Origin: Candidatus Taylorbacteria bacterium RIFCSPHIGHO2_01_FULL_46_22b
Lineage (GTDB): Bacteria; Patescibacteriota; Minisyncoccia; Phycocordibacterales; DSPV01
DNA: 64,000 bases
Direction of reading: 5' to 3'
NCBI GenBank assembly: GCA_001820875.1
Contig: MHRF01000010.1
Location: 3,371-67,370 of the forward strand
Shown here: positions 3,662 through 54,037 of the stretch, one piece after another
Layout: every line of letters starts with the position of its first letter
Numbering within the stretch: the first letter of the stretch is position 1
Notes under the pieces: generated by a model
Told to the model about the DNA's origin: nothing
The model's database searches: none
The model's input: only the letters and a program-made list of their open reading frames with translations
Program-made: the position numbers and the translations under genes

Positions 3662-5659
3662 ATGAACCCGTTCGTGTTATTTGCTCTCATTAGTTCAGTA
3701 ATCGCAATCATCTACGGTCTTATACTTGCATACAATATAAACAAGCAGCCTGCCGGAAATGCACGTATGCAGGAGATTTCGTCCGCAATCCGCGAAGGTG
3801 CAAAAGCCTATTTGAATCGCCAGTACAAAACGATTGGGGCAATCGCTATTATTCTCACACTCATTCTTGGCGCCTCGCTTGGTTTGAAAATGGCAGCTGG
3901 ATTCTTGGTCGGCGCCATTTTCTCAGCTCTCGCAGGCTATATTGGAATGAACGTCTCTGTTCGCGCAAACGTACGCACAGCTGAAGCCGCACGCAAAGGA
4001 TTGGGAGCAGCGCTCTCCCTTGCTTTCCGCGGAGGTGCAGTCACCGGACTCTTAGTCGTCGGACTTGCACTTCTTGGCGTAACTGGATTTTACGCGATAA
4101 CTGCAGATGTAACGGCACTCATTGGACTTGGATTCGGTGCTTCTCTTATCAGTGTCTTCGCGCGACTTGGAGGCGGAATTTTCACTAAAGCTGCCGACGT
4201 AGGAACTGACCTTGTGGGAAAAGTCGAAGCAGGAATTCCTGAAGATGACCCTCGAAATGCAGGAGTGATCGCAGACAACGTAGGAGACAATGTCGGCGAC
4301 TGCGCCGGCATGGCCGCGGACTTGTTTGAGACATATGCAGTTACCTCGGTAGCAACAATGCTTCTTGGTTCTCTGCTTTTCCCTGATTTTGTAAATGCCA
4401 TTCTCTATCCGCTCGTACTTGGCGCAGCCGCTATCATTGCGTCAATTATTGGTACATGGTTCGTGCGCCTCGGAAAAGGGAAAAATATCATGGGAGCTCT
4501 TTACAAAGGACTGATCGCGGCGGGAATTCTTTCGGCGATTGCCTTCTATCCAATCACTGCAATTCTGATGGAGGGAAATGGAGTGTACACAACACTTGAT
4601 CTCTTTATCGCCGCACTCACCGGACTCGTCGTCACTGGACTCTTGGTCTGGATCACCGAGTACTACACTGCAACCAAATACAAGCCAGTGCAATCAATTG
4701 CAGCCGCCTCTCTTTCCGGCCATGGCACCAATATTATCCAAGGTCTTGCTATCTCAATGAAATCGACAGCTCTTCCAGCTCTGGTAATTGTAGGCGGAAT
4801 TCTTATCACCTATCAATTTGCAGGTCTTTATGGAATCGCGGTTGCTGCCATGTCCATGCTTTCCATGGCAGGCATTATTGTCGCTATCGATGCCTATGGC
4901 CCTATCACTGACAATGCAGGGGGTATTGCTGAAATGGCGAATCTCCCGCAGGAAATACGCGACATCACTGATCCACTTGACGCTGTCGGCAACACCACCA
5001 AAGCCGTCACTAAAGGATATGCGATTGGATCGGCAGGATTGGCAGCACTCGTACTCTTTGCTTCGTACACACAAGAATTCGCCAATATGGGGAGCGAACT
5101 CACTTTTGCACTGGGTGATCCGAAAGTCCTTGTCGGATTGTTTATCGGAGGACTTCTCCCCTATTACTTTGCTGCACTCGCGATGGAAGCAGTCGGAAAA
5201 ACTGCCGGAGCAGTCGTCACTGAAGTACGCCGACAATTCAGAGAAATCAAAGGCATTATGGACGGAAGTGCAAAACCAGATTACGCACGAGCCGTTGATA
5301 TCGTCACTAGCGCTGCCATCAAACAAATGATTGTGCCTGCATTGATTCCAGTACTCGCACCAATTGTGGTCGGGTTTGTCCTAGGGCCAGTAGCACTCGG
5401 CGGATTGCTGGTGGGTTCTATCATCACCGGACTCTTTGTTGCAATCTCGATGACGTCAGGCGGTGGCGCATGGGATAACGCAAAAAAATACATTGAATCT
5501 GGTAACCATGGGGGAAAAGGTAGCGAGGCTCACAAAGCGGCCGTTACGGGAGACACCGTCGGTGATCCGTATAAAGATACGGCGGGGCCTGCGATTAATC
5601 CTATGATCAAGATATTAAATATTGTTGCTCTGCTTTTGGTAGGTCTTCTCGCCAAGTAA
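3662..5659 (+). CDS. hppA: Membrane-bound proton-translocating pyrophosphatase (H+-PPase)
   Basis: 665 aa, polytopic. Hallmark motifs [55 protein letters not shown] and [16 protein letters not shown]. Confidence 0.92.
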
Positions 5660-5671
5660 TCTTTATACGGA

Positions 5672-5770
5672 TCGGGGAAGGGGTCGGGAAACGGGAGTTT
5701 CCCGTGTCGGAGAGCAGTTCCGAGTCTTCGAGGAACGTTGAGAACCGTGGGTTCTCAAGAAGCGAAACGA
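5672..5770. repeat. About 100-bp double-hairpin repeat element, copy A
   Basis: Contains hairpins gggaaac-ggga-gtttccc and ttgagaacc-gtg-ggttctcaa. Homologous in inverted orientation to 38845-38955. Lies between the hppA stop and a duplicated hppA 3' fragment. Confidence 0.5.
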
Positions 5771-5774
5771 CGAT

Positions 5775-5869
5775 TTGTATAAAGATACGGCGGGGCCTGC
5801 GATTAATCCTATGATTAAAATACTGAACATTGTAGCGCTACCATTAGTCGGACTCTTGGCAAAGTAAAA
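5775..5869 (+). pseudogene. Orphan duplicate of the hppA 3' end (last ~31 codons plus stop)
   Basis: 5775-5869 re-encodes [29 protein letters not shown]. The first ~40 nt are identical to 5565-5605; the rest differs at about 14 synonymous sites and one non-synonymous site (L to P). Confidence 0.6.
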
Positions 5870-5995
5870 GAATCTCCTCTAGAAAAACCTAAGCTTTCAC
5901 AGCTTGGGTTTTTCTTTTTATGCCTTGTTGCAACTCACACTCATCAAGTATAATAGGTGACACAACGAGAGCATATTAGAAAAAATTTTATCTAC

Positions 5996-6796
5996 ATGAA
6001 TATCATCAAAACTGCCGGACTTTTAGGCGCACTAATACTCACTGCATCAGCATCAGTAGTGTCTGCTGAAACAGACGCAGTAGGTACAGCAAATACAACT
6101 CAGTATAAAACTGCATCTACAACGCTTCGCGAGAAAGCCTTGTATGAAAAAGAACTCTTGCAGAAACAACGAGAAGAAATGCAAGCAAAAAATGCTGCTG
6201 CACGTGAACAAATAAAAAATACGGCATCAACCACAAGAGCTGATGTAAAAGAAAAAGTCCAGACGACTCGTGAACAAATAAAAAATACCGCATCGACTAC
6301 TCGATCAGATATACAAGACAGGGCACAAGCAGCACGCGAACAAATCAAGAACAATGCTTCAACTACGCGAGCCGCTATCAAAGCGCGTCTTGACGAACAG
6401 CGCCAGCGCATGATTACCGCGTACGGAGAAAGAACCGTAAATCGATTCAATGCCGCAATAGAAAGACTCACCAATATTGCAGATCGGATCGGCTCACGAC
6501 TTGATAAGCTCGCAGCAGAGGGAATTTCAGTCGACACCGCCCGCGCAAAACTAGCCGTTGCACGAACAGCCATTGCTGACGCAGCAGCCTCGATCGGAAG
6601 TATTATTGACGCAATTGGCACACTCAATGCGTCCGATGATCCAAAAACAGAACTCGAAAGTGTGCGCACAATTATCAAGTCTGTTGAAGAAAAGATAAAG
6701 AAGGCGCATGAAGCGCTCGTAGAAGCCCTTAACTCGGTACAACCTAGAATTAATCGGGCTACCTCCACTCCAGAAAATAACAATGGATCAAATTAA
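5996..6796 (+). CDS. Hypothetical secreted coiled-coil protein with tandem REQIKNTASTTR repeats
   Basis: ATG at 5996 follows a TATAAT-like box at 5948-5953; the ORF-track start at 5957 is GTG. Signal peptide MNIIKTAGLLGALILTASASVVSAETDA. Three approximately 21-aa tandem repeats (AREQIKNTASTTRADVKEKVQTT...). Confidence 0.55.
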   Translation: MNIIKTAGLLGALILTASASVVSAETDAVGTANTTQYKTASTTLREKALYEKELLQKQREEMQAKNAAAREQIKNTASTTRADVKEKVQTTREQIKNTASTTRSDIQDRAQAAREQIKNNASTTRAAIKARLDEQRQRMITAYGERTVNRFNAAIERLTNIADRIGSRLDKLAAEGISVDTARAKLAVARTAIADAAASIGSIIDAIGTLNASDDPKTELESVRTIIKSVEEKIKKAHEALVEALNSVQPRINRATSTPENNNGSN

Positions 6797-18633: not shown

Positions 18634-18881
18634 TGAGATTTCACATGAAAGTAAGACTTTTACCTGTTACTAAGTAACATCGAAACATCGCAAAAAGACA
18701 TTTAAATCACTAAACGGCCTAAAATAGGCTCTTTTTAAAGTTAAAGAGACATAACAAACTGTCTTTTATACACATATACACAGACTTATCCACATAATCA
18801 ATCTAAAAGCAGAAAATCCTTATAATACAGAGAAAATGTAGGAGTGATCATGAATCGAGGCATAAAAGACACTCTTATTGG

Positions 18882-18952
18882 TGCGGGTAGGGAGAATCGA
18901 ACTCCCGTCTTGTCCTTGGCAAGGACACATTCTACCACTAAACCATACCCGC
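18882..18952 (-). tRNA. tRNA-Gly (anticodon GCC)
   Basis: Hand-folded: acceptor GCGGGTA/TACCCGC, D-arm GTTT-AGTGGTA-GAAT, anticodon stem TGTCC/GGACA with loop TTGCCAA, T-arm GGGAG-TTCGATT-CTCCC, discriminator A. Confidence 0.85.
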
Positions 18953-19069
18953 ATTTCTCATCAAGATTCAAAAAAACAACTGGTGGGATGAGCCATGGTA
19001 ACATTTTTTTTTCCAAATATCTACTTCCGCGGGGACAAATAACTGAAAATATCGTAGAATGCCAAGTAA

Positions 19070-19141
19070 GCTCCCGTAGTGAAACGGATATCACAACGGT
19101 CTTCGGAACCGTTATTGCAGGTTCGAGTCCTGCCGGGAGCA
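19070..19141 (+). tRNA. tRNA-Arg (anticodon TCG)
   Basis: Hand-folded: acceptor GCTCCCG/CGGGAGC, D-arm GTGA-AACGGATA-TCAC, anticodon stem ACGGT/ACCGT with loop CTTCGGA, T-arm GCAGG-TTCGAGT-CCTGC, discriminator A. Confidence 0.75.
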
Positions 19142-19152
19142 TTGAATGCTGT

Positions 19153-20655
19153 ATGAAAAAAGAAACTCTATTTACCATCCCAAATGAAGTAGTTGAGGTT
19201 GCTAAAACCCTAGAAAAGAAGGGTTTTGAGGCATTTCTCATTGGTGGATGCACTAGAGATCTTCTGATCGGTCGAACTCCCAAAGATTGGGACATCACCA
19301 CTAATGCGACTCCTAAAGAAATCATTTCATTATTCACAAAAACATTTTATGAAAATGAATACGGAACGGTGGGAGTTGTAAATGAAAACACAGAAGATAT
19401 TTCGCTCAAAGTAATTGAGGTTACCCCGTATCGTCTGGAATCTACCTATTCAAACAAACGCCACCCTGATGAAATAAAATTCGGAAAAAAGATCGAGGAG
19501 GATCTTAAACGAAGAGACTTCACTATAAACGCCATCGCGGTAAAAGTGGTTGAATCTAAAGGACAGAAAAATTATAAAGGACAAATTATAGACCCTTATA
19601 AAGGACAGTCGGATATATCTGAAAAAATTATAAGGACAGTAGGAGACCCTGATGAAAGACTTCAAGAAGATGCTTTGCGTATAGTAAGAGCACTAAGATT
19701 AGCCACGGAGTTGAGTTTCATGATTAACACAGAGACTCAAGTGTCTATCAAAAAAAATATATCGCTTTTAAAAGAGATTTCACGTGAAAGAGTTCGGGAT
19801 GAATTTATAAAAATACTGATGTCAGACAACCCAATGAAAGGGCTTGAGATGTGTCATGAATACGGACTACTAAAAATATTTCTTCCAGAACTTGAGGCAG
19901 GTATAGGAAATAAACAGAACAAAGCCCATGCATACGACGTATGGGAGCATTCATTGCGAACACTTCAGCACTCTGCTAAAAACAAGTGGTCTCTTGAAGT
20001 AAGACTTGCAGCGCTTTTTCACGATATCGGAAAACCTCCTTCTAGATTATGGTCAGAAGAGAAAGGCGACTGGACTTTTCACGGACATGACATGGTTGGA
20101 TCAAAGATAACAGCAAAAATACTTTCTAGATTAATGTTTCCTGTGAAAACTATAGAAAAGGTAGTAAAGCTAGTTCGCTGGCACATGTTCTTCTCTGACA
20201 CAGACCAGATAACCTTATCTTCTGTGCGAAGGCTTTTAAGAAATGTTGGAAAAGATTCGATTTGGGATCTAATGAATGTTCGAGCATGTGATCGTATAGG
20301 AACGGGTAGACCCAAAGAACAACCCTACCGTCTAAGAAAATACCACTCGATGATCGAAGAGGTTATGCATGATCCAGTTAGTGTTTCGATGCTTAAGATA
20401 AATGGGGCTAAAATCATGGAGATTGCTGGTATCAATCCTAGCCCTAAGATAGGCCATATTTTGCACGCCCTTCTTGAAGAAGTTATGGAGGATCCAAAAC
20501 TCAACACTACAGAATATCTTGAGAAAAGAGTTACAGATCTAAATAAAATGACTGAAAAGGAACTTCAAAATTTGGGTGACATGGGAAAAGCAAAGAAAAA
20601 TGCCCAAGAAGAGTCTGCTATAAAAAAGATACGAGAAAAATACTGGGTAAAGTGA
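19153..20655 (+). CDS. cca: CCA-adding enzyme / tRNA nucleotidyltransferase with HD domain
   Basis: Start at MKKETLFTIP; the 603-aa track ORF begins inside the tRNA cluster and its N-terminus is spurious. Pol-beta-like NTase head (GGCTRDLLIGRTPKDWDITT), then an HD domain (AALFHDIGK...HGHDMVGS). Confidence 0.85.
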   Translation: MKKETLFTIPNEVVEVAKTLEKKGFEAFLIGGCTRDLLIGRTPKDWDITTNATPKEIISLFTKTFYENEYGTVGVVNENTEDISLKVIEVTPYRLESTYSNKRHPDEIKFGKKIEEDLKRRDFTINAIAVKVVESKGQKNYKGQIIDPYKGQSDISEKIIRTVGDPDERLQEDALRIVRALRLATELSFMINTETQVSIKKNISLLKEISRERVRDEFIKILMSDNPMKGLEMCHEYGLLKIFLPELEAGIGNKQNKAHAYDVWEHSLRTLQHSAKNKWSLEVRLAALFHDIGKPPSRLWSEEKGDWTFHGHDMVGSKITAKILSRLMFPVKTIEKVVKLVRWHMFFSDTDQITLSSVRRLLRNVGKDSIWDLMNVRACDRIGTGRPKEQPYRLRKYHSMIEEVMHDPVSVSMLKINGAKIMEIAGINPSPKIGHILHALLEEVMEDPKLNTTEYLEKRVTDLNKMTEKELQNLGDMGKAKKNAQEESAIKKIREKYWVK

Positions 20656-38844: not shown

Positions 38845-38955
38845 GGTCCGGCAGTGGGGTTTATTTGAGAACCTCTCGGTTCTCAACACTCGTCCGTACA
38901 TTGGCGGACTCTTTGCTCTCCTCCACGGGGAAACTCCCGTTTCCCCGACCCCTTT
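38845..38955. repeat. About 100-bp double-hairpin repeat element, copy B (inverted relative to copy A)
   Basis: The reverse complement aligns with 5672-5770, sharing ggggaa(a)ggggtcgggaaacgggagtttccc and gttgagaacc...ggttctcaa. Lies just after the 37878..38810 stop and before the T4SS-like operon. Confidence 0.5.
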
Positions 38956-39053
38956 CCCCTCACACCACGCTCCTTTCATTGATTAGATAAAAAATTATCG
39001 GTGGTGTGAGTAAATCACATAGTAGTGCGTTGGTGCTTGAGGTATAATAACCA

Positions 39054-41114
39054 GTGAAACATACGGTGAACTTCTTTGTCCCAAAAAAGTTGCGGATTTT
39101 AGTCGTCGTGGCGCTTATGTGTTTGCTCGCAGCGCCCGTTAATTTCCTGTTGTCTCCAAAAACGGCCGAGGCGCAAGGACTCGTTCCTACTGGAGACTGG
39201 CTCAACACAGTATTTCAGAGCATCACAAGCGCGGCGACCTATTATGAAGAGCTGAAAGAATCCGTTCTCGACGGTCTTGCGTGGTATGCGGCAAAAATAA
39301 TCATTGAACAAATGACCTCGGAACTCGTTAACTGGATCAATGGCGGAGGAAATGGCGATCCAGCATTTATCAGTGATCCTGCGGGATTCTTTTTGGGTGC
39401 AATTGAAGCGACTGCGGGAAATATTTTACACGACTCTCCACTTGGTTTTCTCTGCGATCCTTTAAAACCGTTTGAAGCGCAGATAAAAGTTACGTTAAGC
39501 AATCGCTATAATAAAAATACTTCGGGATCACTTAACAGAAAGAACTCTTCCTGCGGCATAGATGACATTAGGGATAATTTGTCGGGTTTTTACGCAGGCA
39601 ATAACAAAGGGAAAATAACCAGTTGGGACCAGTGGCTTTCCATTACCCAAATACCCTCAAACAATATTTATGGCGCAACAATCCAAGCAGAACTTGAAAT
39701 GGATGCAGCGATAGGAGGCACACAGTTTCTTAATAAGACAACTGCTGACTGGGGACAGGGATTCCAATCGCAGGGTGAATGTACGTTAGAGAGTGAGGAA
39801 ACGGGAGCATGTTTACAGTATGCAATCGTTACCCCCGGATCATTTATAAAAGATACGCTTACTAATCAACTCGGACTTAGTGGCGATTCCTTGGTGACAG
39901 CCGACGAGATCAGTGAAATTATCGGTGCGATAGTGACACAACTATTCAATAAAGTAGCTACGGGAGGGCTCGCAGGTCTCTCAAAAGGAGGCAACAGTGC
40001 GTATACCAATCAAATAAAGGTTGACAAAAACCCCGCAGCATCTGTTAAGGCAGACGGGAAAGTAACTAAACGAACCACGAACGGCAACGGTCAGCAGGTA
40101 GACGAAGATGTAGATACAACTGAATGGAACAACGCAAACAATGCGGTAAATACTGCAATAAGAAACGAATTTGACGTGCTGTACGAGGAAGAGAATGCGA
40201 GAGCGCAAGCAAATATCCCCACCGGTGGTGGATTTGCGATTGTGGGGACACAACAACCTCGACTCGATCTCCGGAATGCAACTGCTGACCAAATCTGTAC
40301 TGACGACTTCCCAGGTACCACCGGACTATTTATAGGTTCAGCTGACCAAGCGCTTGATGGTTCGGGTACCACTGCGTCGCTCGCTAATGGATGCACCGGC
40401 ACTCCTTACTGGTGGAATGTCACTATCCCAGCAGCAACCAAACTTGATAAAGTTGAAGTGCAAGTTAATAGTGGAAAATATGGACTTGCGGGATGGCCGC
40501 CAGCAGGAGGCGGGAACAACGCACCTCCTATAGGACCATTTCTCGCACTCTACCCTCAAAACACTGCTGGACAAACAACTATTGGGAGTTGGATTTGGAA
40601 TGCTTCAGCGGGACGTTTTGAAAAAAAGCTCACCTACACAGGAGCACTCATTCAAGAAGAGTTGCCGGAGGCCCTACGCAAGATACCTATTACCAAGATC
40701 CAAATTGAATCTAACCGACAAACGGGTGCAGACAGACCGGGCTTAAGTCTTTCAGAAGTCCGCGTCTTCCGCCATCTCCTCCCTGAAATTAATGCAAGTA
40801 AAGTTCCAACATCATTGACGCAAGTACAAGCAACAGACTTCGACCCGACACAAGCAGCGTGGATTACCGCTCAATACTATCCGCTCTATAGCAATCCTGC
40901 AGTACCGATTGATCAAGATAATATCCACGTGGTTATCACGGACACCGCCACTCAAACAGTGGTACAACCAACCAATACGGCCACAGGTACCTACACACTT
41001 CTTCCGGGTACCTATCAATTCTCATACACCGCGACATCACCTGCCTCTGACAATCAAACGAGCGAAACCGTGACTGGTACAGTGCGAGTTATCGCATCGC
41101 CAACAACTCCATAA
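39054..41114 (+). CDS. Large secreted hypothetical protein (first gene of T4SS-like operon)
   Basis: 686 aa. Signal/anchor LRILVVVALMCLLAAPVNFLLSPKTAEAQG. Thr/Gly/Asn-rich. Stop 2 nt before the next gene. Confidence 0.5.
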   Translation: MKHTVNFFVPKKLRILVVVALMCLLAAPVNFLLSPKTAEAQGLVPTGDWLNTVFQSITSAATYYEELKESVLDGLAWYAAKIIIEQMTSELVNWINGGGNGDPAFISDPAGFFLGAIEATAGNILHDSPLGFLCDPLKPFEAQIKVTLSNRYNKNTSGSLNRKNSSCGIDDIRDNLSGFYAGNNKGKITSWDQWLSITQIPSNNIYGATIQAELEMDAAIGGTQFLNKTTADWGQGFQSQGECTLESEETGACLQYAIVTPGSFIKDTLTNQLGLSGDSLVTADEISEIIGAIVTQLFNKVATGGLAGLSKGGNSAYTNQIKVDKNPAASVKADGKVTKRTTNGNGQQVDEDVDTTEWNNANNAVNTAIRNEFDVLYEEENARAQANIPTGGGFAIVGTQQPRLDLRNATADQICTDDFPGTTGLFIGSADQALDGSGTTASLANGCTGTPYWWNVTIPAATKLDKVEVQVNSGKYGLAGWPPAGGGNNAPPIGPFLALYPQNTAGQTTIGSWIWNASAGRFEKKLTYTGALIQEELPEALRKIPITKIQIESNRQTGADRPGLSLSEVRVFRHLLPEINASKVPTSLTQVQATDFDPTQAAWITAQYYPLYSNPAVPIDQDNIHVVITDTATQTVVQPTNTATGTYTLLPGTYQFSYTATSPASDNQTSETVTGTVRVIASPTTP

Positions 41115-41116
41115 CC

Positions 41117-44100
41117 ATGAAAAGATTCTTCTACAAAATAAACACCTTGCGATCCAAGATTACCTTGCGAAATGCCGTGGTTGTCGTGTTGTTACTTGCA
41201 CTTGTTTCTACCGTTGCACCACATCTGGAAGTAGGGACCGCACAAGCATTTACTGGATTCAGCCCCGCTTTAACTCAAGCTGTTGCAGGAGCAGTGGGGG
41301 CAGGCGCATCTGAAGTTGGCGAGAATGCCTCTATGTTAAGCAAGGTGTATGACGCCATCTCAACACTCACAAGTCCTCTAAACGCCCTGCAAACATTTTT
41401 CACTAAAGTTCTGGGGATTATTGTCCTCACTATTATGTCGCTCGTGGTCCGCATTTCTGCGGCCATTATGGAGGGTGCAATGTTTTTGACTGCCAACATG
41501 AGCGAAGTGCTTCGGGTTGTTCCCATGGTTGATATAGGATGGGCACTGTTCCGAGATCTTGCAAACATGGTATTCATATTCATCCTTCTCTACATCGCCA
41601 TCGCCACCATTTTGAACACTGAAACAAACACACGACAAATGCTTGTTGACGTGATCATTACAGCACTCCTCATCAACTTCTCACTCTTTCTCACCAAAGC
41701 AATGGTAGACGGTTCAAACATCGTTGCACTGATGTATTACAATAAAATGAACGCTGTCCAACCAGTAGGGGGAATAGCTCGAGCCTCGCAAGAAACCACC
41801 GTGAAGCTTTTTGGACAAGAGTTAGGAGGCCAGCTTTCTCACGGTCCGACACTGATACTAATAGATGCGCTCGGTATCGCAACATTCTACGATCCAGACG
41901 CTTTCAAACAAGCAGCCGCAACATCACAAACAAATCTCACCGAGGGATGGAATCAGTTCCTTCGGGCGGCAGGAGGAACTCCTGATGCACCGTACACGGA
42001 ACTTGCACGAGTTCTACTCGGAGCTGTATTGATGCTCATTGTTGCATTTGTGTTTGCAACTGCCGGTTTATTGTTGATCATCCGTATTATTGTACTTATG
42101 TTTTTGATGATGCTCGCTCCTCTGGCATTTGTCGCACGCATATTGCCACAAGCCAAAGGACAATGGGAAAAATGGTGGAGCACGTTAATGGCAAACCTTA
42201 TTTGGGCACCAATCTATTTTGCCATGCTGTATGTAATTCTCACCGCCATCAGAGGATTAAATCGAAGCGGCACACTTGCTGGCGGACTGGGGGGGCTTGA
42301 ATCAGATATGGGAAATCTCTTGGGGTACATCTTCATTATCGTTCTCCTCTCAATGACCATCATTATTGCCAAGCAACTCGGACTTCACGGGGGAGAGATG
42401 GTGCACAAATGGTCTGAAAATGCAGCTAAGTGGGCACGTGAAAAGGTTCGACAAGGTCAAGGAGTTGTCGGACGTCACACCATTGGACGTGCAGCTCGAT
42501 ATACAGAGGAAGCTGCTCATGAATCGCCATTCTGGAATAGCGTGGTGGGATCAAAGATTCGTGAATTTACTACACAACCCCTTGCAGATGCAAAGTTTGG
42601 CGGAACAATGTCCGCATGGCAAATGAAGGAAAAGGATAAGGTCCGCCAAACCGGTCAAGTAGAGGCCGAGCGTCTGCAAAAGTTCATGCATGAAGCCGAA
42701 AAAGGAGACGCCGCCAATCCACATGTGCTAGAAGACTTGGCTATCCGATTGGCCCCCCAAACACTTGCCCACACTGATATGAGATTCCTAAGGAAACTGC
42801 CTATCGGCATACTTCCCGACACACACTTCCAAGCGCTTATGGCATCGGATAAGGTACAAAAGGATAAAGACGAGCTCGCTCGCCTACGTCTCAAGCCTAT
42901 GCAGCTTGTTCGGGACAAAGTCAGAGCTCAAACGCTTGCCACTATTATGCTTCAACAACATCCCGAGTTAAAAGACACTTATTTCGAGGCGGACGGACTG
43001 AAGCTATTCAAGAAAAAAGACTTATTGGATGCAAAGCTTGCGGAAGGGAAGGCACTCGCAGATCTTCCTGTTGAAGAAAGACTGTCACCAGCAGAAGAAA
43101 CCTTACTTGCCGAAATGAAATCAAGAGGTATTTCGTGGTCAGCAAAAGAAGAAAAAGCATTTGATCCTGCGTTCGAATTTATACGTGCCAAAAATCCAAA
43201 AGAACTTGGGCAGTTAAACCGTGTCGATCCAGACGCTATAAATGAGCTGGCACCTATCTTAAATTGGTCCCAGTTAGATCCTTTGCGTAAAAGCGACGAC
43301 ATTACCTTCAAACAACGCAACGGACGTGATGGGGGACAATTGCGCGATTACAAGGATCGAATGTTGCTTGATGCGTTAGCCATCGAATATGGGGTATCCC
43401 TCACTGATGCTAACGGAAAACTACGTACGCTTGAAGAGCGCTACGACGATTTTATGAAAGTAAACGGTCTGCTCCGCAAGAAAGTGCGCCAGTTTGGGGT
43501 TGAGTCGATTGAAAATGCGGCGCACTCAAAACACAGCGAATATACCCAAAAAGACATCGATCTGTGGGGTAAATTGAAAGCAATAAGCCCTGCACAAAGA
43601 GATATTGCCCGCCACCTGTTTGAGCAACACCACGAGGGACGGAGTGACTCGGAGCTTACTAAGGGGCGTACTTATCAGCGAAATGACGCAATTAACTTTG
43701 CATCACTCGGAGCTGGTTCAGTACCTTTCCTCATAGATCGAGACAACGACAAGAAAGAGGAACAGGGAGGACAACTGCTAACAGCTATTGCAGAAGATAA
43801 TTTGACGGAACAAAACAAGGAATTCCTTGCCAAGGTGTGGTGGGATCGCGATGCAGATAAATACCTGAAAAATTGGGAGGAGATTGCTCGACGGAATGGG
43901 TGGGAAAACAATGAAAGAGTCAAACTCGCGTTAAAATGGAAAAATGAGGGGGAAGCAGGCAAGAAAAAGTTTAAAGAAGCGGTTAAAGCCATTAAGCATA
44001 CGGATTTCTTTGCGGGTTCAACAACAACCGGAGGAACTAAGTGGGATGAGTTAATTGCAGAGGATGCACCGGCAACTGGAGGCGCAGGAGGCAGGGGAGG

Positions 44101-44254
44101 AGCTGCTGCAGCGCCAGCCGGGAGACCGAGAGTGGCTCCGCCAGCATCAGGGACACCACCACTGCGCGTAAACCGAGGAGGACAAAGTGGAGCAAACCAG
44201 CAAGGACAACAAAATCAATCGGGTCAAAATCCGACTGGAACAAATAATCCTTAA
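41117..44254 (+). CDS. VirB6/TrbL-like polytopic membrane protein with long hydrophilic C-terminal domain
   Basis: 1045 aa. At least 6 TM helices in the first ~450 aa (e.g. LGIIVLTIMSLVVRISAAI, MVFIFILLYIAIATIL, LLGAVLMLIVAFVFATAGLLLIIRIIVLMFLMMLAPLAF). A charged ~500-aa tail ends in a Gly/Gln-rich low-complexity region. This architecture is typical of VirB6/TrbL in Gram-positive-type T4SS. Confidence 0.55.
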   Translation: MKRFFYKINTLRSKITLRNAVVVVLLLALVSTVAPHLEVGTAQAFTGFSPALTQAVAGAVGAGASEVGENASMLSKVYDAISTLTSPLNALQTFFTKVLGIIVLTIMSLVVRISAAIMEGAMFLTANMSEVLRVVPMVDIGWALFRDLANMVFIFILLYIAIATILNTETNTRQMLVDVIITALLINFSLFLTKAMVDGSNIVALMYYNKMNAVQPVGGIARASQETTVKLFGQELGGQLSHGPTLILIDALGIATFYDPDAFKQAAATSQTNLTEGWNQFLRAAGGTPDAPYTELARVLLGAVLMLIVAFVFATAGLLLIIRIIVLMFLMMLAPLAFVARILPQAKGQWEKWWSTLMANLIWAPIYFAMLYVILTAIRGLNRSGTLAGGLGGLESDMGNLLGYIFIIVLLSMTIIIAKQLGLHGGEMVHKWSENAAKWAREKVRQGQGVVGRHTIGRAARYTEEAAHESPFWNSVVGSKIREFTTQPLADAKFGGTMSAWQMKEKDKVRQTGQVEAERLQKFMHEAEKGDAANPHVLEDLAIRLAPQTLAHTDMRFLRKLPIGILPDTHFQALMASDKVQKDKDELARLRLKPMQLVRDKVRAQTLATIMLQQHPELKDTYFEADGLKLFKKKDLLDAKLAEGKALADLPVEERLSPAEETLLAEMKSRGISWSAKEEKAFDPAFEFIRAKNPKELGQLNRVDPDAINELAPILNWSQLDPLRKSDDITFKQRNGRDGGQLRDYKDRMLLDALAIEYGVSLTDANGKLRTLEERYDDFMKVNGLLRKKVRQFGVESIENAAHSKHSEYTQKDIDLWGKLKAISPAQRDIARHLFEQHHEGRSDSELTKGRTYQRNDAINFASLGAGSVPFLIDRDNDKKEEQGGQLLTAIAEDNLTEQNKEFLAKVWWDRDADKYLKNWEEIARRNGWENNERVKLALKWKNEGEAGKKKFKEAVKAIKHTDFFAGSTTTGGTKWDELIAEDAPATGGAGGRGGAAAAPAGRPRVAPPASGTPPLRVNRGGQSGANQQGQQNQSGQNPTGTNNP

Positions 44255-44259
44255 AAACC

Positions 44260-45207
44260 ATGGATGCTGAAAAACGAAAATTACTGGACGAAAAATTCTA
44301 CTTGCTTGCAAAACCCTTGCAGGACGTGATTCTTGATGAAGACGAGAAACTAGAAACTACAGTTGATCTCATAGTACAGAAGTACAAACTTGAACTCGAT
44401 ACTGCACGAATACTGGACGATGAAATCGTTATGGTACTTGGTGGATTTACCAACCCTAAGGACTTTATACGAGCACTTAGTGGAAAACTTGGGACAGATG
44501 CAAGTAAAGCACCCGCAATTGCGCAAGAGATAAACGAAAAAATATTCCGCGCGGTCAAAGACGACCTGCAAAATCTCTATGGACTTCCTATCCCGAAACA
44601 ACCTCAACAAAAACCTTCGCTTGCCACCGAACTTGAAGAAGATGTTGGGCTACGAAAACAACTAGAGCAGGCAAAATCTGCTGAACAGAAACGACCTCTG
44701 TCGGCAGTGTTACAAGATGCGTTACGTGCAGGAGGAAAAGAGACTGAATCTGGAATAACGAATAATGAATTTAGGGAAGAGCAAAATTCAAAATTCAAAA
44801 TTCAAAATTCTGCTAATGAAATTGAACCTCTGCGTACTATGGAACGTGATATGGAATCCGTACGGCATACTGGAACTTCCCGTCCAAGACCAGCGTTTAT
44901 ACCTCCAACTCCAAGAGACAGAGAATCTGGAATAACGAATAATGAATTTAGGGAAGAGCAACTAAAAGAAGAGAAGCCTCCGGTCCCACCAAAACCCCCA
45001 GCTTCTACACCCTTTACCCAAAGCCCAAGACTTCCAGTCCCTCCGCCACCACGTGCACCGAGACAAGAACCCGCCGAAGAGCCCGAGGAGCAACTGAGTC
45101 GCGAAGATATCTTGCGTGGCATTGAAGATCCATCGAGTATTCCACGCGACCGTACCAATAACTCGCCGGTGTACAACGCGGATCCGTATAGAGAACCCAC
45201 AGAGTAG
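44260..45207 (+). CDS. Proline-rich repeat protein (T4SS-like operon)
   Basis: 315 aa. A 39-bp perfect direct repeat encodes ESGITNNEFREEQ twice. A (caaaatt)x4 heptanucleotide tract sits at 44782-44809. The C-terminus is Pro-rich (PPVPPKPPASTPFTQSPRLPVPPPPRAP). Confidence 0.5.
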   Translation: MDAEKRKLLDEKFYLLAKPLQDVILDEDEKLETTVDLIVQKYKLELDTARILDDEIVMVLGGFTNPKDFIRALSGKLGTDASKAPAIAQEINEKIFRAVKDDLQNLYGLPIPKQPQQKPSLATELEEDVGLRKQLEQAKSAEQKRPLSAVLQDALRAGGKETESGITNNEFREEQNSKFKIQNSANEIEPLRTMERDMESVRHTGTSRPRPAFIPPTPRDRESGITNNEFREEQLKEEKPPVPPKPPASTPFTQSPRLPVPPPPRAPRQEPAEEPEEQLSREDILRGIEDPSSIPRDRTNNSPVYNADPYREPTE

Positions 45208-45212
45208 GGGGA

Positions 45213-45232
45213 AGCGAAGAGCGACTAGCGAG
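45213..45232. repeat. IR motif copy 1 (agcgaagagcgactagcgag)
   Basis: Near-copy (3 mismatches in 20) of 45704-45723; inverted relative to 45269-45284. Confidence 0.5.
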
Positions 45233-45268
45233 CAGAAAAGTTAGTTGTTACACTTGGTAGTACTATTC

Positions 45269-45284
45269 GCTAATCGCTTTTCAC
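45269..45284. repeat. IR motif copy 2 (gctaatcgcttttcac)
   Basis: One mismatch to 46103-46118; reverse complement of the agcgaaaagcgattag motif. Confidence 0.5.
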
Positions 45285-45297
45285 TTGTCGCTACGTT

Positions 45298-45705
45298 ATG
45301 CGCTTTCAAGTCCCACAATTTATTGAGATAGAAGATAAGGTATTTGGACCATTTACCTTTAAGCAATTCGTATATATCGCCGGCGGAACAGGTATCTGCT
45401 TTCTGCTCTTATATACACTGCCGAGATTTCTCGCGATCATAGCGGTTATCCCTGTCGCCGCACTTTCCCTTGCGCTCGCCTTTTACCGAATAAACAACAA
45501 ACCGTTCGTGCAAATGGTGGAAGCTTTCTTCAGATACATTATCGGCACACGTCTCTATTTGTGGCACAGAACAGATAAACAAGTAACCGGAAAAGCACCG
45601 CTCGCTCGGCAATACGAACAAATAAAAATCCCTACGCTCGAAGGAAGCAAACTAAAAGATATTCAGTGGAGTTTGGGAGTGAAGAAAGATGGAGTTAGCG
45701 AATAG
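45298..45705 (+). CDS. PrgI/VirB3-like small membrane protein
   Basis: 135 aa with two adjacent TM helices (YIAGGTGICFLLLYTL; FLAIIAVIPVAALSLALAFY), positioned directly upstream of the VirB4-family ATPase as in Gram-positive conjugation loci. Confidence 0.5.
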   Translation: MRFQVPQFIEIEDKVFGPFTFKQFVYIAGGTGICFLLLYTLPRFLAIIAVIPVAALSLALAFYRINNKPFVQMVEAFFRYIIGTRLYLWHRTDKQVTGKAPLARQYEQIKIPTLEGSKLKDIQWSLGVKKDGVSE

Positions 45706-45719
45706 CGAAAAGCGATTAG
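45704..45719. repeat. IR motif copy 3 (agcgaaaagcgattag)
   Basis: Perfect 16-bp inverted repeat with 46103-46118, flanking the four-helix-bundle gene. Overlaps the stop of the PrgI-like gene. Confidence 0.6.
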
Positions 45720-45740
45720 AGAGCAAAAATACTGAAAAAT

Positions 45741-46106
45741 GTGCCGAAACTAAAGACATACAAGGAGTTAATCGTATGGCAGAAATCAGTGACAATTGTT
45801 GAACATGTGTATACACTCACCAAAAACTTCCCTAAGGATGAAATATACGGACTGACTAGCCAGATGAGACGAGCGGCAATTTCTATACCATCTAATATCG
45901 CGGAGGGATGGTCGCGAGAAACTCGAGGAGATTTTGCCTATTTCTTGAGAATCGCCCGCGGATCTAGTTCAGAACTCGAAACTCAACTAGAAATTAGCCA
46001 GCGATTAACGCTTATAACCGATACACGTTATAATGAAGTGAGTGAATTGCTTTCTGAAGTATCACGCATGTTGAATGCAATCTTGCGTAAATTACCTAAT
46101 CGCTAA
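45741..46106 (+). CDS. Four-helix-bundle protein of the 23S-rRNA-IVS-protein / DGR Avd family
   Basis: 121 aa. LIVWQKSVTIVEHVYTLTKNFPKDEIYGLTSQMRRAAISIPSNIAEGWSRETRGDFAYFLRIARGSSSELETQLEISQRL matches the GLTSQ.RRAA.SIPSNIAEG...DF..FL.IA.GS..ELETQL signature. Confidence 0.8.
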   Translation: MPKLKTYKELIVWQKSVTIVEHVYTLTKNFPKDEIYGLTSQMRRAAISIPSNIAEGWSRETRGDFAYFLRIARGSSSELETQLEISQRLTLITDTRYNEVSELLSEVSRMLNAILRKLPNR

Positions 46107-46118
46107 TCGCTTTTCGCT
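46103..46118. repeat. IR motif copy 4 (ctaatcgcttttcgct)
   Basis: Perfect reverse complement of 45704-45719. Confidence 0.6.
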
Positions 46119-46126
46119 TTTTCCCT

Positions 46127-46774
46127 ATGGCAGCATCTTCAAAATCATCACAGGAGTTTGTCCCCGTTAAAGAAGTTCGAGACGGCGTATTGGTCCTGCA
46201 GGATAATTCACTCCGAGCGGTTCTGATGGTTTCCTCTATTAATTTTGCTCTCCAATCGGAAGAAAGCCAGACGGCTATCGTGGCTCAATTCCAAAATTTC
46301 CTAAACTCCCTAGACTTTTCTGTCGAAATTTCCATGCAGTCCCGAAAGATGGATATAAAACCTTACCTTTCTCTCCTTGAGGAACGGTACCAGAAGCAAC
46401 AGAGCGAGCTTATGAAAATACAAACTCGAGAGTATATAGAGTTCATCAAAACCTTTACAGACAATACAAATATTATGACGAAGACATTCTTCATAACTGT
46501 CCCGTATGGTGCAACCATGGTTTCGCTCAAGAAAAACCCTCTGGAAACAATCAGCGGGTTTGTAAGAAAATCTGATACATCTAAAAAAACCAAAGGGGAA
46601 GTTGATGAATTCGAGGAACACAAAGAACAATTGCAACAACGTCTTGCGGTAGTAGAACAAGGGTTAGTCCGATGCGGTCTTAAAACCGCTCGGCTCGGAT
46701 CAGAAGAACTTATCGAACTCTTTTACAGACTTTTCAACCCCGGAGAGGCACAACAGCGAATACCGACTTCATAA
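46127..46774 (+). CDS. VirB4/TraE-family conjugative ATPase, N-terminal domain (upstream of in-frame TAA)
   Basis: VPVKEVRDGVLVLQDNSLRAVLMVSSINFALQSEESQTAIVAQFQNFLNSLDFSVEISMQSRKMD matches the N-terminal domain of Gram-positive VirB4 homologues (PrgJ/TraE/TcpF type). Ends at TAA 46772-46774, in the same frame as the next ORF. Confidence 0.7.
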   Translation: MAASSKSSQEFVPVKEVRDGVLVLQDNSLRAVLMVSSINFALQSEESQTAIVAQFQNFLNSLDFSVEISMQSRKMDIKPYLSLLEERYQKQQSELMKIQTREYIEFIKTFTDNTNIMTKTFFITVPYGATMVSLKKNPLETISGFVRKSDTSKKTKGEVDEFEEHKEQLQQRLAVVEQGLVRCGLKTARLGSEELIELFYRLFNPGEAQQRIPTS

Positions 46775-46780
46775 AAATTT

Positions 46781-48610
46781 ATGGGCATTTTTGACTTTTT
46801 AAAAAAGAAAGAGCAGGCACTACCGTCGATTCTCCCTGGGGAAATCTATGAGGCAGCTTCGCTTGAACTCAAAGATATTATCGCTCCGGGGGCACTCAAA
46901 ATCAGTCCTCGTCAGCTAAACTTGGGGGAGAAAATAGCACGAACATTCTTTGTGGTTTCCTATCCGCGTTATCTCAATGACAACTGGTTCTCACCGGTCA
47001 TCAACCTCGACAAAGTATTTGACATCGCTATCCACGTACATCCGATAGACACTTCGACAATTCTCCGAACATTCCAAAAGAAGGTGGCCGAGGTACAAAG
47101 CCAAATCTCCATGCGCGAAGACAAGGGGTTGGTGCGCGATCCCAAACTCGACACGGCTTACCAAGATCTGGAACAGTTGCGAGATTCGCTCCAGCAAGCG
47201 CAGGAAAAACTATTTGAAGTCGGATTGTATGTCACTCTGTATGGAAGTACCGAGGAGGAATTGACCAAATTGGAAACCGAAATAAAAACCATGCTCGACG
47301 CACGCCTAGTGTATCTAAAACCCGCGCTCTTTCAGCAAGAACAAGGTTTTATAAGCACGGTGCCCTTGGGGGACGACCAACTGCTGGTACACAACAAACT
47401 CAACACGTCTCCGCTATCAAGTATTTTCCCTTTTGTATCGTTCGACCTCACGTCAGACAAAGGAATATTGTATGGTATCAATCGACATAACGCCTCTCTC
47501 GTGCTGTTCGATCGATTTTCACTTGAGAACTACAACTCAATCACATTCGCGAAATCCGGATCAGGAAAATCGTACGCAACCAAACTTGAAATCTTACGCA
47601 CACTTATGTTTGATGCTGATGTGATTGTCATCGATCCCGAACGCGAGTATGAACACCTTGCGGAAGTTACCGGCGGGAAATATTTCAATATTTCGCTCAA
47701 TTCAGAACATCACATAAATCCCTTCGATCTTCCACCCACACGGGAAGGGGAATCGGCGGCAGACGTACTTCGATCAAACATAATCAACCTTGTCGGCCTG
47801 TTTCGAATCATGCTCGGCGGGCTTTCGCCTGAAGAAGATGCGCTGATTGATCGCGCGATTACCGAAACATACGCCCTGAAAGATATTACTCCTGACAGTG
47901 ATTTCTCAAAAATGTCCGCGCCATTGATGTCAGATTTTGAAATGGTACTTTCCGGTATGGACGGTAGCACATCACTCGTGCAGAAACTTTCGAAGTACAC
48001 CAAGGGTACGTGGTCAGGTTTCATCAACCAACCGTCAAACGTCAATATCAATGATCGGTTTATTGTATTCTCCGTGCGAGATATGGAAGACGAACTTAAA
48101 CCAGTCGCCATGTACATTGTCATGCACTTTATTTGGAATGCAATTAGACAGAATCTCCGCAAGCGCCTCCTCGTCATCGACGAAGCATGGTGGATGATGA
48201 AATCAGAAGACACTGCTTCGTTTCTTTTGTCGCTTGCGAAACGTGGGCGCAAATATTTTTTGGGACTTGCCACTATCACTCAAGATGTTGATGATTTCCT
48301 CCGATCCCCCTACGGCCTCCCGATACTCACCAACTCATCAATTCAGATGCTCCTGAAACAATCACCGACCTCTATTGAACGCATCAAAGAAGTGTTTAGT
48401 CTTACCGACGAAGAAAAATACCTTCTGCTTGAATCGGATGTCGGAGAGGGAATCTTCTTTGTTGGACTCAAACATGTAGCCATAAAAATAATCGCATCAT
48501 ACACCGAAGATCAAATCATCACCTCTGATCCTTCACAACTCTTGGCAATTAAAAAAGCAAAAAAAGAGTTTCTTGCACAAGGAGGAGATAGCGGTACTCC
48601 TCTCAATTAA
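46781..48610 (+). CDS. VirB4/TraE-family conjugative ATPase, central and ATPase domains (downstream of in-frame TAA)
   Basis: IAPGALKISPRQLNLGEKIARTFFVVSYPRYL (conserved VirB4 block), Walker A ITFAKSGSGKSYATK and Walker B LLVIDEAWWMM. Frame identical to 46127..46774, separated only by TAA-AAA-TTT. Confidence 0.8.
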   Translation: MGIFDFLKKKEQALPSILPGEIYEAASLELKDIIAPGALKISPRQLNLGEKIARTFFVVSYPRYLNDNWFSPVINLDKVFDIAIHVHPIDTSTILRTFQKKVAEVQSQISMREDKGLVRDPKLDTAYQDLEQLRDSLQQAQEKLFEVGLYVTLYGSTEEELTKLETEIKTMLDARLVYLKPALFQQEQGFISTVPLGDDQLLVHNKLNTSPLSSIFPFVSFDLTSDKGILYGINRHNASLVLFDRFSLENYNSITFAKSGSGKSYATKLEILRTLMFDADVIVIDPEREYEHLAEVTGGKYFNISLNSEHHINPFDLPPTREGESAADVLRSNIINLVGLFRIMLGGLSPEEDALIDRAITETYALKDITPDSDFSKMSAPLMSDFEMVLSGMDGSTSLVQKLSKYTKGTWSGFINQPSNVNINDRFIVFSVRDMEDELKPVAMYIVMHFIWNAIRQNLRKRLLVIDEAWWMMKSEDTASFLLSLAKRGRKYFLGLATITQDVDDFLRSPYGLPILTNSSIQMLLKQSPTSIERIKEVFSLTDEEKYLLLESDVGEGIFFVGLKHVAIKIIASYTEDQIITSDPSQLLAIKKAKKEFLAQGGDSGTPLN

Positions 48611-48616
48611 TCAACC

Positions 48617-49627
48617 ATGGAAGGAGAAGTTCACAAAAGAAGCAACATTGAATGGTTCTTCTTGATTGCAATTGCAATTACTATTGATCTTGTGCAAATA
48701 GGACTTGATCTCCTTGTGGGAGTTGGCATAGTCATTAATCGATTTATTGATCTCATTGTTGGCCCAGCACTTTTTATGTACTGCGCCGTCACGCATATTA
48801 AATTAACTGTAGGTAGAACCGTAAGTATTCTCGGCACTATCGTCGGTGAGATGATTCCCGTTATTGATATCGCTCCATTTTGGACAGCTGATGTTATCTT
48901 CATTATGCTCTCGGTCAAAGCGGAAGAAGGAAACAAACTGGCAAAGGTTGGATTGCTTGCAACTGGCATCGCTGGAGCGGCAGCAGGAGGAGCATTCAAG
49001 GGAAGCAAAAAACCACCGTCAGGAGCGATGGTTGTCAGAAAGGGTGGCCCCAGCCCCCAAACAGCTTCCGGCTTTTCTCGATCTCAACCAAAAGTAAATA
49101 TCCCCAAAAGTAAAAACTGGCAGGCGGCGGGTTTTGAAACAGAGGAAAATGCGAACGAGTGGCACACCGCTCTGATGTCATCAGGTAATTCTCGAATTGT
49201 TCAATCCGAAAAGGCTCGGGCAACTATGGGGCGAATGTGGAAAGACGCTGGCTTTACCCCCGATCAAGCGCGTGAATATATCGCGCAGGGCGTTGTAAAT
49301 CCACAGGCAGCACGTGGGTACAATCTGCCAAGAAGGGCGGAGGTACAACCTCCTCCGATACCGCAGGGTCAGCGCGTGCCCCCGAAAATAAACACCGGAG
49401 GAAAACCGCCGGTAATTCCACCGCCAAAAATCAATGATACACGAAGACCTCCGGTCATTCCACCGCCCAGACTCACTGGAGAAGAACCTACAAAAACAGA
49501 GCGCTTACGCAACTATGCAAAGGAGAAATTGTACGAAAAGGGTAAACAAAAAGTCGAGGATGTAGAGGTGATCCGTGGAAATGCTCCTAGAAAGGAGGAG
49601 CAAGAAGAAGAGGTGGATAGTGCATAA
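48617..49627 (+). CDS. Hypothetical polytopic membrane protein with Pro-rich C-terminal repeats
   Basis: About 4 TM helices in the first 120 aa. C-terminal PPKINTGGKPPVIPPPKINDTRRPPVIPPPRL repeats. Confidence 0.5.
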   Translation: MEGEVHKRSNIEWFFLIAIAITIDLVQIGLDLLVGVGIVINRFIDLIVGPALFMYCAVTHIKLTVGRTVSILGTIVGEMIPVIDIAPFWTADVIFIMLSVKAEEGNKLAKVGLLATGIAGAAAGGAFKGSKKPPSGAMVVRKGGPSPQTASGFSRSQPKVNIPKSKNWQAAGFETEENANEWHTALMSSGNSRIVQSEKARATMGRMWKDAGFTPDQAREYIAQGVVNPQAARGYNLPRRAEVQPPPIPQGQRVPPKINTGGKPPVIPPPKINDTRRPPVIPPPRLTGEEPTKTERLRNYAKEKLYEKGKQKVEDVEVIRGNAPRKEEQEEEVDSA

Positions 49628-49660
49628 GTAAACACGGATGGCTATGGTAAAATAGAAACA

Positions 49661-50671: not shown

Positions 50672-51060
50672 AATACGTAACCGCAGTTTATATTGTAGCC
50701 CTCTGTTGCACATTTTCTTTTGTAACCACCGTGCCACCGGCACAGGCAGAAGATGTAAATTATGTCCCGCTTGCTCCTATCGCCAATGTTAATCCTTCAG
50801 GAGCAACAAGTGTCAATGTTGGAAATTACATGACACAACTGTTCAAACTTGCAATCGGAATCGCCGCAGGTCTTGCAGTTATGCGAATTGCGTATGCTGG
50901 AATAAAATACATGCTTAGTGATGTGATCACCCAAAAATCAGATGCGGTGCAAATGATCAAGAACGCAGTCGGAGGGCTTCTGCTTGCCCTATGCGCATGG
51001 CTAATACTGTACACGATAGGAGGAGACAGCCTTACCAATCTTAACTTCAACAGTATATGA
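50668..51060 (+). CDS. Candidate VirB2/TrbC-like pilin-type small membrane protein
   Basis: 130 aa. Signal peptide (AVYIVALCCTFSFVTTVPPAQA), then two hydrophobic helices (LFKLAIGIAAGLAVMRIAYAGI; GGLLLALCAWLILYTIGG). Size and topology match conjugative pilins; no sequence-level proof. Confidence 0.4.
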   Translation: MKYVTAVYIVALCCTFSFVTTVPPAQAEDVNYVPLAPIANVNPSGATSVNVGNYMTQLFKLAIGIAAGLAVMRIAYAGIKYMLSDVITQKSDAVQMIKNAVGGLLLALCAWLILYTIGGDSLTNLNFNSI

Positions 51061-53903: not shown

Positions 53904-53905
53904 AC

Positions 53906-54037
53906 CTACAAAGCAAGCTTAGCTCGGCCAACTCTGCGGCGATTACGCAAAACTCTCCTTCCGTTAGAGGATTTAGTTCGAGTTAAGAATCCATGGGTTC
54001 TTGCTCGCTTTCTTTTCTTTGGTTGATAGGTTACAGA
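53906..54037 (-). CDS. rpmH: 50S ribosomal protein L34
   Basis: Start at the internal [44 protein letters not shown], the canonical L34 sequence. The longer track ORF is an upstream extension. Confidence 0.9.

Follow-up and report, generated by a model that had tools for sequence, protein, structure and literature searches.

Cis-mobilizable elements (CIMEs) lie between direct repeats of the end of their target gene and leave that gene restored (PMC5704250). A comparable arrangement is described here for the 3′ end of hppA, a membrane pyrophosphatase gene located in a 64,000-nucleotide stretch of Candidatus Taylorbacteria bacterium RIFCSPHIGHO2_01_FULL_46_22b (contig MHRF01000010.1, positions 3,371 to 67,370, hereafter the window). 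We propose, with a probability of roughly 0.55, that the duplicated end of this gene represents the junctions of a 208-bp non-autonomous, site-specific insertion element whose rescue tail has displaced the native one. The element resembles integrative elements and CIMEs in its target-end repeats, the supply of a replacement end, the displacement of the native end and its tandem accretion (PMC5704250). It also shares with integrative elements the use of tRNA, tmRNA, rplL and rpmG-type genes as targets. Unlike CIMEs, its units are small and carry no integrase, one and the same core serves dozens of targets, an inverted copy of the target is present, and no autonomous relative has been found. The element appears to lack the integrase ancestry that defines CIMEs.

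Other systems rely on folded single strands. Members of the IS200/IS605 group read their site by guide pairing at the foot of a hairpin, can be reprogrammed, and use a single-strand circle intermediate (PMC3201880, PMC5934647, PMC5027513). Like these, and like PATEs and REPINs, the hppA element has sub-terminal hairpins, no terminal inverted repeats of its own and strictly oriented insertion. However, its putative guide measures 15–27 nt instead of 4, one hairpin domain is used for the two ends, a portion of the target gene travels with the element, no Y1 (HUH) transposase is seen in the 64-kb window, and the window copy lies off the lagging-strand template. While IS200/IS605 elements recognize a short conserved target that is not duplicated, here the targets lack any motif, including a common tetranucleotide, and long target copies flank the insert.

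In attP(+) of the CTX phage and attC of integrons, two inverted segments fold and mimic a double-stranded site (PMC3442271, PMC4792948). The element likewise forms an imperfect folded duplex that mimics its site, and the arms remain together at one end of the insert after integration. However, attP(+) corresponds to a fixed dif site and attC is bound by IntI, whereas the stem described here copies whichever gene is targeted; no conserved Xer or IntI motif was seen in the closing stems of the family.

The bridge and seek RNAs of IS110 and IS1111 are structured, non-coding, target-matching and programmable; they are located beside a DEDD recombinase gene and employ internal loops. By this description they would share with the element a target-matching sequence in a structured non-coding part. 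They are not known to duplicate or rescue their target gene, as happens here, and no DEDD recombinase gene is present. Miniature inverted-repeat transposable elements (MITEs), Rickettsia palindromic elements and Correia elements are, like the element, short, multi-copy, hairpin-forming and non-coding, and lie in or beside genes. Their terminal inverted repeats are their own and their duplications are short and fixed, whereas the inverted and direct repeats at hppA and related loci are target-derived, variable in length (12–84 nt and longer) and gene-restoring. In its defining features the element differs from diversity-generating retroelements (DGRs), MITEs and IS200/IS605 elements, and no Rfam family matched it. 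It can be described as a site-specific non-autonomous insertion element, with a substantial chance of belonging to a guide-programmed new class.

The duplicated 3′ end of hppA

The interrupted and rescued target, hppA, occupies positions 3662–5659 of the plus strand and encodes a protein of 665 amino acids (open reading frame, ORF; Pfam H_PPase). Its homologues carry the name sodium-translocating pyrophosphatase, and the exact protein is present under Candidatus Taylorbacteria. A previous reading of this DNA, made from the sequence alone (the sequence-only reading), had proposed that the end of the gene is duplicated. This is borne out by a 96-nt direct repeat (5564–5659 and 5772–5867, 80% identity, offset 208 nt), the coordinates first proposed being 1–3 nt off. 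The in-frame part of the repeat comprises the last 30 hppA codons including the stop (5570–5659 versus 5778–5867). Copy 1 (5564–5659, plus strand) is in frame and functional. Copy 2 (5772–5867, plus strand) is an orphan that stands one base out of the hppA frame (offset 208) and is probably the displaced native tail. A native-looking terminator stands 3′ of copy 2: a strong intrinsic terminator (5881–5919, plus strand) follows this copy, not copy 1, and lies 38 nt before the next gene.

Both copies share an identical block of 39 nt (5569–5607 = 5777–5815), close to the 40 nt or so first noted, and every difference lies 3′ of this block. In a codon alignment, 16 codons are the same (stop included), 13 differ synonymously and 1 non-synonymously, for a total of 17 nucleotide differences. 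The non-synonymous change is CTT (Leu) to CCA (Pro). The sequence-only reading had been right that only one amino acid differs, and had put the synonymous differences at about 14 instead of 13. When 17 random substitutions were simulated, one non-synonymous codon or fewer was obtained in 0 of 50,000 trials (mean 9.9; P < 2e-5), and the first 12 codons stayed free of change in 0 of 100,000 trials. Chance and in-situ decay are excluded as the source of this pattern, and the earlier view that the tails diverged under coding selection holds. Both tails were probably already synonymously diverged when they were joined, because the orphan would otherwise be far richer in non-synonymous changes. The same arrangement is present in all six contigs read, which come from at least five metagenome assemblies, and the exact protein occurs in nine contigs. 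Since the duplication is identical in these six contigs, it is not an assembly artefact.

Several features set copy 2 apart. It does not extend into a longer ORF: its frame contains only a 30-codon ORF with a TTG start (5775–5867), a start that is not conserved at L126, a related locus. The best 120 HppA homologues listed all read GPAINPMIK...ALL or ALI at this end, whereas copy 2 reads ALP. In the conspecific contig L003, copy 2 contains a cluster of three single-nucleotide polymorphisms (SNPs); this allele carries A>S, I>V and L>P, and thus also reads GPSV. As its residues differ from those of the 120 homologues, copy 2 appears to be gathering damage. The unusual residues (P, and S and V in L003) are carried by copy 2 only, which is consistent with copy 2 being the displaced one.

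The block of identity itself varies, being only 22 nt long in the L003 allele versus 39 nt in the window; the longer block looks like the product of a later gene conversion from copy 1. In L126 the copies are identical over 13 nt only, exactly the part that pairs with the inverted copy described below. The suggestion that the 39-nt identity is simply the crossover does not survive these comparisons. The conspecific contigs L002 and L003 are otherwise identical to the window, the exceptions being window positions 2995–3289 in L002 and 5799–5810 and 6356–6410 in L003. These tight SNP clusters fall in nusA, hppA copy 2 and the gene downstream, and indicate short tracts of recombination or gene conversion in the population.

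Structure of the insert

The whole insert at hppA measures 208 bp. The synonymously diverged tail of copy 1 (5608–5659, plus strand) probably arrived with the element. It is followed by an inverted copy of the target site (IRL; 5659–5674, plus strand), the 16-nt sequence ATCTTTATACGGATCG, whose first nucleotide is also the final one of the stop codon and which reproduces hppA 5563–5578 exactly as its reverse complement. The target sequence that it copies spans the left edge of the direct repeat. Next comes the conserved core (5675–5771, plus strand), composed of a G-rich junction, GGGAAGGGGT (5675–5684), hairpin H1 (5685–5704) followed by another junction, hairpin H2 (5717–5736), which is optional in the family, hairpin H3 (5738–5758) and a 3′ segment ending in CGAC (5759–5771).

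The inverted copy forms the 5′ strand of a 16-bp closing stem (5659–5674 with 5771–5786). The 3′ strand is the start of copy 2, CGATTTGTATAAAGAT (5771–5786, plus strand), in which a CC>TT change relative to the target gives two G·T or G·U pairs. Pairing-compatible transitions of the same kind are found in the stems of L126, L055 and L014, and suggest that the strand shown is the one that folds. This imperfect intrastrand duplex (16 bp, two G·T pairs) mimics the hppA site, the resemblance being a structural one only. The 107-bp double-hairpin segment noticed earlier between the tails is real but was drawn too simply: there are three hairpins and a target-derived inverted repeat, and the functional unit appears to include this repeat and to overlap both tails. 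The core junction and H1 together (GGGAAGGGGTCGGGAAACGGG, 5675–5696) also match a canonical four-tract G-quadruplex motif, which would compete with H1.

A family of elements in Patescibacteria

The search for further copies that had been suggested at the outset revealed a large family. All counts given here refer to the matches listed for the 22-nt core motif GGTCGGG(N)AAACGGGAGTTTCCC, and totals are lower bounds. At least 237 public contigs contain the motif, of which 118 or more come from metagenomes and 119 or more from species-representative genomes. These cover Saccharibacteria, many Parcubacteria lineages, Berkelbacteria and Kazan, plus a few bins labelled otherwise. Several copies can occur in one metagenome-assembled genome, up to three of them inside 8 kb. 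There were 0 matches in IMG/VR viral contigs or PLSDB plasmids. Rfam scans of the window at gathering thresholds, of positions 5500–6000 at E ≤ 10 and of 14 other loci at E ≤ 5 gave no match at the core, be it to introns, ribozymes, omega or HEARO RNAs, tmRNA, SRP or any other family, and returned tRNAs and noise only. Full-text literature searches found no description of the element, which is not proof of absence.

The core is a base-paired structure under selection, since H3 covaries over 112 copies (one outer pair is G-C in 33, U-A in 30, A-U in 20 and C-G in 14) and a one-base length variant of H1, GGG(G)/CCC(C), is matched on both strands. For a pseudoknot between the J2 junction and the H3 loop there was no significant covariation (52 of 100 paired, against 45 ± 4 in shuffles). 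A tmRNA, signal recognition particle RNA or tRNA-like gene was rejected as the identity of the core, which is multi-copy, negative in ARAGORN and Rfam, and flanked by locus-specific sequences. In L054, L100, L104, L115, L146 and L182 a variant core keeps H1, the H2/H3 region being replaced by GGGGTGACC…GGGCTAGAGGGCGGAAGCCCTATAGAGCGCA.

The tRNA and tmRNA genes are the most frequent neighbours. Among 229 assessable copies, 140 follow a same-strand tRNA or tmRNA gene at a distance of no more than 200 nt (62 of 115 in metagenomes, 78 of 114 in genomes), and a single tRNA/tmRNA-linked copy lies on the other strand. Direct repeats of at least 12 nt, corresponding to the 3′ end of the upstream gene, flank 117 of 187 copies with a median spacing of 178 nt, so that many members do sit beside duplicated gene ends. 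The shortest repeats measure 12 nt and the longest exceed 80 nt, while the units span 85 to 409 bp. Immediately 5′ of the core, each locus has an inverted copy of its own target; this segment differs at every locus, and the targets have no shared sequence. When the complement of the segment is compared with both sites, the better fit is to the intact upstream one in 95 cases and to the downstream copy in 7. The same core is found with more than 30 unrelated targets.

Protein genes are targeted at their 3′ ends (hppA, rplL, an rpmG-like gene, a sigma factor and others) or, on the opposite strand, at their 5′ ends (dnaK, EF-G, a lepA-like GTPase, rnhA and others). In every case examined the gene body lies on the 5′ side of the element. 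Over 13 protein-gene cases, roughly 77 codons show synonymous and roughly 11 non-synonymous differences between the copies. The hppA pattern is a signature of the family and not a local accident, since the same rules of position, repeat and divergence recur across copies. The earlier proposal that integration or recombination supplied a replacement tail gains support from the same signature at these 13 protein genes and at most tRNA-linked copies.

In L055, L023, L066 and L100 the element forms tandem arrays (periods of 127–292 nt); such arrays are to be expected if copy 1 stays a perfect target. At many tRNA-linked copies, an intrinsic terminator separates the element from the tRNA. In L040, an element copy that follows the tmRNA gene duplicates the tmRNA 3′ end. 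In L031, where a tRNA 3′ end stands before an element copy, a group I intron (3742–3999) comes directly ahead of that tRNA end; it probably interrupts a tRNA gene missed by ARAGORN.

A second family member is present in the window on the minus strand (38863–39010; core 38866–38957). It has its own inverted repeat before the core, CTCACACCAC (39010–39001) with GTGGTGTGAG (38968–38959), and no flanking gene-end duplication was detected at this copy. It falls in a sub-group whose members have a 5′ hairpin of their own and a 3′ stem resembling a terminator. In the related sub-group copies of L026, L037, L048, L101, L107, L108, L133 and L217 the hairpin modules are duplicated; the L217 unit as a whole lies between 16-nt direct repeats.

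The hppA site in related genomes

The element is found at this very position in the species represented by L126 and L127, which has an HppA of 84% identity. The L126 copies differ by 21 synonymous changes and 1 non-synonymous change. L125, a third species, retains an inverted copy, some of H3 and fragments of copy 2, and the locus is best regarded as a decayed insertion. In L128 and L129 the stop codon is directly followed by a terminator, so that both sites are empty. The presence of the element at this site in L126/L127, its decay in L125 and its absence from L128 and L129 point to mobility. Although the recurrence of the tandem arrangement in L126 is what an ancestral feature would produce, a possibility that had been raised against the original interpretation, an ancestral relic is unlikely because the orphan is intact in two species and decayed in L125, and the L128 and L129 sites are empty.

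In each species the inverted copy matches that species' own synonymous variant of the target (window, TAT; L126, TAC; L125, CCA-TAC). Both L126 copies encode a lineage-specific Phe, and both window copies Leu. All hppA tails are 65–82% identical to one another over the last 51 nt, with synonymous sites saturated. As every tail is about 70–80% identical to all relatives, nucleotide identity does not decide which of them is native, and pairing with tRNA acceptors was uninformative in this respect.

A model for insertion and rescue

The mobile unit would consist of a gene-end rescue tail, a spacer of about 0–130 nt, the inverted target copy and the multi-hairpin core. The spacer is missing at hppA, and is often a terminator at tRNA genes. 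Insertion would have taken place within the last 30 hppA codons, so that the gene now ends in the element-borne tail (5608–5659), the native tail and its terminator having been pushed downstream as an orphan (5778–5919). The travelling copy is likely to be the functional one, because a passenger copy without function would degenerate with each further transfer, whereas the downstream copies across the family are intact; the downstream copy would then be a recently displaced native end. The sequence-only reading had also taken copy 1 as incoming and copy 2 as displaced, and this assignment is probable by the logic of passenger decay, though it cannot be read from sequence identity.

The inverted copy, complementary to the uninterrupted target over the insertion point, most likely sets the site by base pairing. 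Since the targets have no shared sequence and the inverted copy spans the insertion point, such targeting would be the most economical account. In a folded single strand, either DNA or RNA, the inverted copy would pair with the start of copy 2 and rebuild a duplex that mimics the target. A mechanism acting on single-stranded DNA appears more likely than one at the RNA level, because terminators precede many tRNA-linked copies. Joining would be carried out by a trans-acting enzyme encoded elsewhere, probably via a small circular or hairpin intermediate. In the case of a circle, its junction would read …CGACGATTTG/TATAAAG…AAGTAA/TCTTTATACGG (boundaries marked by slashes).

A bolder version of this model is possible, though we regard it as tentative: a nucleic-acid-guided element in which the 15–27-nt inverted copy programmes the site, a recoded rescue end of the essential gene that it splits is carried along, and a recombinase or nuclease not yet recognized in CPR bacteria, or perhaps the core itself acting as a ribozyme, mobilizes the unit. 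Two other origins were discarded. Priming of reverse transcription by tRNA was rejected as the source of the inverted copies, since they have no CCA complement and can reach into the tRNA trailer (L077, L095), which indicates that they derive from genomic DNA and not from mature tRNA. A nuclease guide RNA with an immune recoded copy was rejected in its simple form, because copy 1 still matches the inverted copy perfectly.

Several observations weigh against an insertion element with a rescue tail. The neighbours of 245 copies include no consistent transposase, integrase or reverse transcriptase, and only housekeeping families recur among them. In the 64-kb window, the only recombination functions are a Xer-like recombinase and RuvABC. 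Neither an autonomous relative of the element, nor an excised form, nor a conspecific empty site has been observed. Nucleotide identities do not show which tail is foreign, and a foreign donor would need to have the same Phe or Leu residue as its recipient. The model does not account for the origin of a new inverted copy upon retargeting. The fold energy of the window copy, taken alone, is unexceptional (z = −1.84). Finally, the structured strand of the hppA copy is the plus strand, which is the leading-strand template if oriC lies near 54 kb, as GC skew indicates; this single case is at odds with a strict IS200/IS605-like mode.

Alternative explanations

The core could instead be a useful structured RNA module, such as a 3′ untranslated region or trailer stabilizer or a processing signal, that lacks machinery for transposition and spreads between related genomes by DNA uptake and homologous recombination, the gene-end duplicate being a portable right homology arm. 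The core is GC-rich and conserved, H3 covaries and the closing-stem changes are compatible with G·U pairs. At hppA, moreover, the core lies inside the transcription unit, ahead of the terminator, the SNP clusters show that recombination is frequent in the population, and no enzyme was found nearby. However, terminators precede many tRNA-linked copies, so that the core would rarely be transcribed there, and recombination leaves the exact inverted copies at more than 30 targets, the arrays and the strict orientation unexplained. We consider this explanation unlikely.

A decayed integrase-encoding island at the hppA 3′ end, that is, a CIME that kept attL and attR and lost its genes, would account for direct repeats of the target end that flank an insert and restore the gene, the defining features of CIMEs (PMC5704250). 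Such elements are known to accrete in tandem, and large serine recombinase genes or pseudogenes are located near three or four of the cores. These recombinases look incidental, as they belong to islands at adjacent tRNAs (L182) or are pseudogenes (L154). The att arms are specific for each integrase, whereas one core is found here at more than 30 targets; att sites also have no inverted target copy. The units are all tiny (median 178 nt), with no full-length relative among the 245 copies. An origin of this kind is quite improbable. With regard to these recombinases, N-terminally damaged large serine recombinase genes abut the cores in L154 (2900–3300) and L089 (minus strand, upstream). Both loci share the upstream motif CGTTCGGACTAATTCAAGAATACTGCACAAAA, and intact recombinase homologues are present near cores in L041 and L182.

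The arrangement could also be old and vertically inherited, the 208 nt being reversibly removed by DNA excision between the repeats or by an intron-like step in RNA, in which the inverted copy would guide both junctions, so that both tails are kept coding and either could end the protein. Removal of 208 nt would restore the frame. Two species share the arrangement, each with its own tail residue (Phe in L126, Leu in the window), and in L126 identity between the copies is confined to the 13 nt of pairing with the inverted copy. However, the orphan and core of L125 have decayed harmlessly, and the residues of copy 2 are non-conservative and absent from the best 120 homologues listed. Terminators separate the tRNA from the element at other loci, which excludes splicing as a general mechanism. 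Besides, the core is far below the size of known self-splicing introns, and Rfam is empty for it. The odds of this account are as low as those of a decayed island.

A DGR with template and variable repeats (TR/VR), or any other programmed variation at the gene 3′ end, has next to no chance of being correct: although the repeat is at a gene 3′ end and an Avd-like protein is encoded elsewhere in the window (45741–46106), only 7 of the 17 substitutions fall at A in copy 2, 13 of the 14 changed codons are synonymous, which is the opposite of diversification, and Pfam scans of all 59 window ORFs of at least 90 amino acids detected no RVT domain.

Taken as a whole, the interpretation first offered for this locus, an integration event at the gene end, is partly supported.

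Significance for Patescibacteria

The genomes of Patescibacteria are tiny and few mobile elements have been recognized in them, yet a near-invariant core of about 100 nt has spread across the radiation. Because it brings a spare gene end, the element adjoins tRNA, tmRNA and essential protein genes without inactivating them. If the inverted copy directs insertion, this would be a compact programmable integration system with a protein partner to find. On a conservative reading, the element explains the orphan gene-end and tRNA-end fragments seen in assemblies of the Candidate Phyla Radiation (CPR), points to one cause of misannotation (pseudo-tRNA halves and short ORFs, for example), and can serve as a marker for recent gene flow between CPR species.

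Other features of the window

The likely replication origin lies at 53568–56880, where rnpA and yidC, on the minus strand, are followed by dnaA (54203–55570) and dnaN (55780–56880); the minimum of the cumulative GC skew is at about 52–54 kb. A type IV secretion system (T4SS)-like cluster extends over 39054–52310 and includes PrgI, VirB4/TraC, a TraG-type ATPase and a T4SS pilin. The Avd-like/23S-IVP four-helix protein (45741–46106) is encoded inside this cluster, together with several large ORFs that have no Pfam match. The ORF of the CCA-adding enzyme (18844–20655) overlaps tRNA-Gly (18879–18952, minus strand) and tRNA-Arg (19070–19141, plus strand). Its true start is probably located downstream, since the Pfam head domain begins at residue 130.

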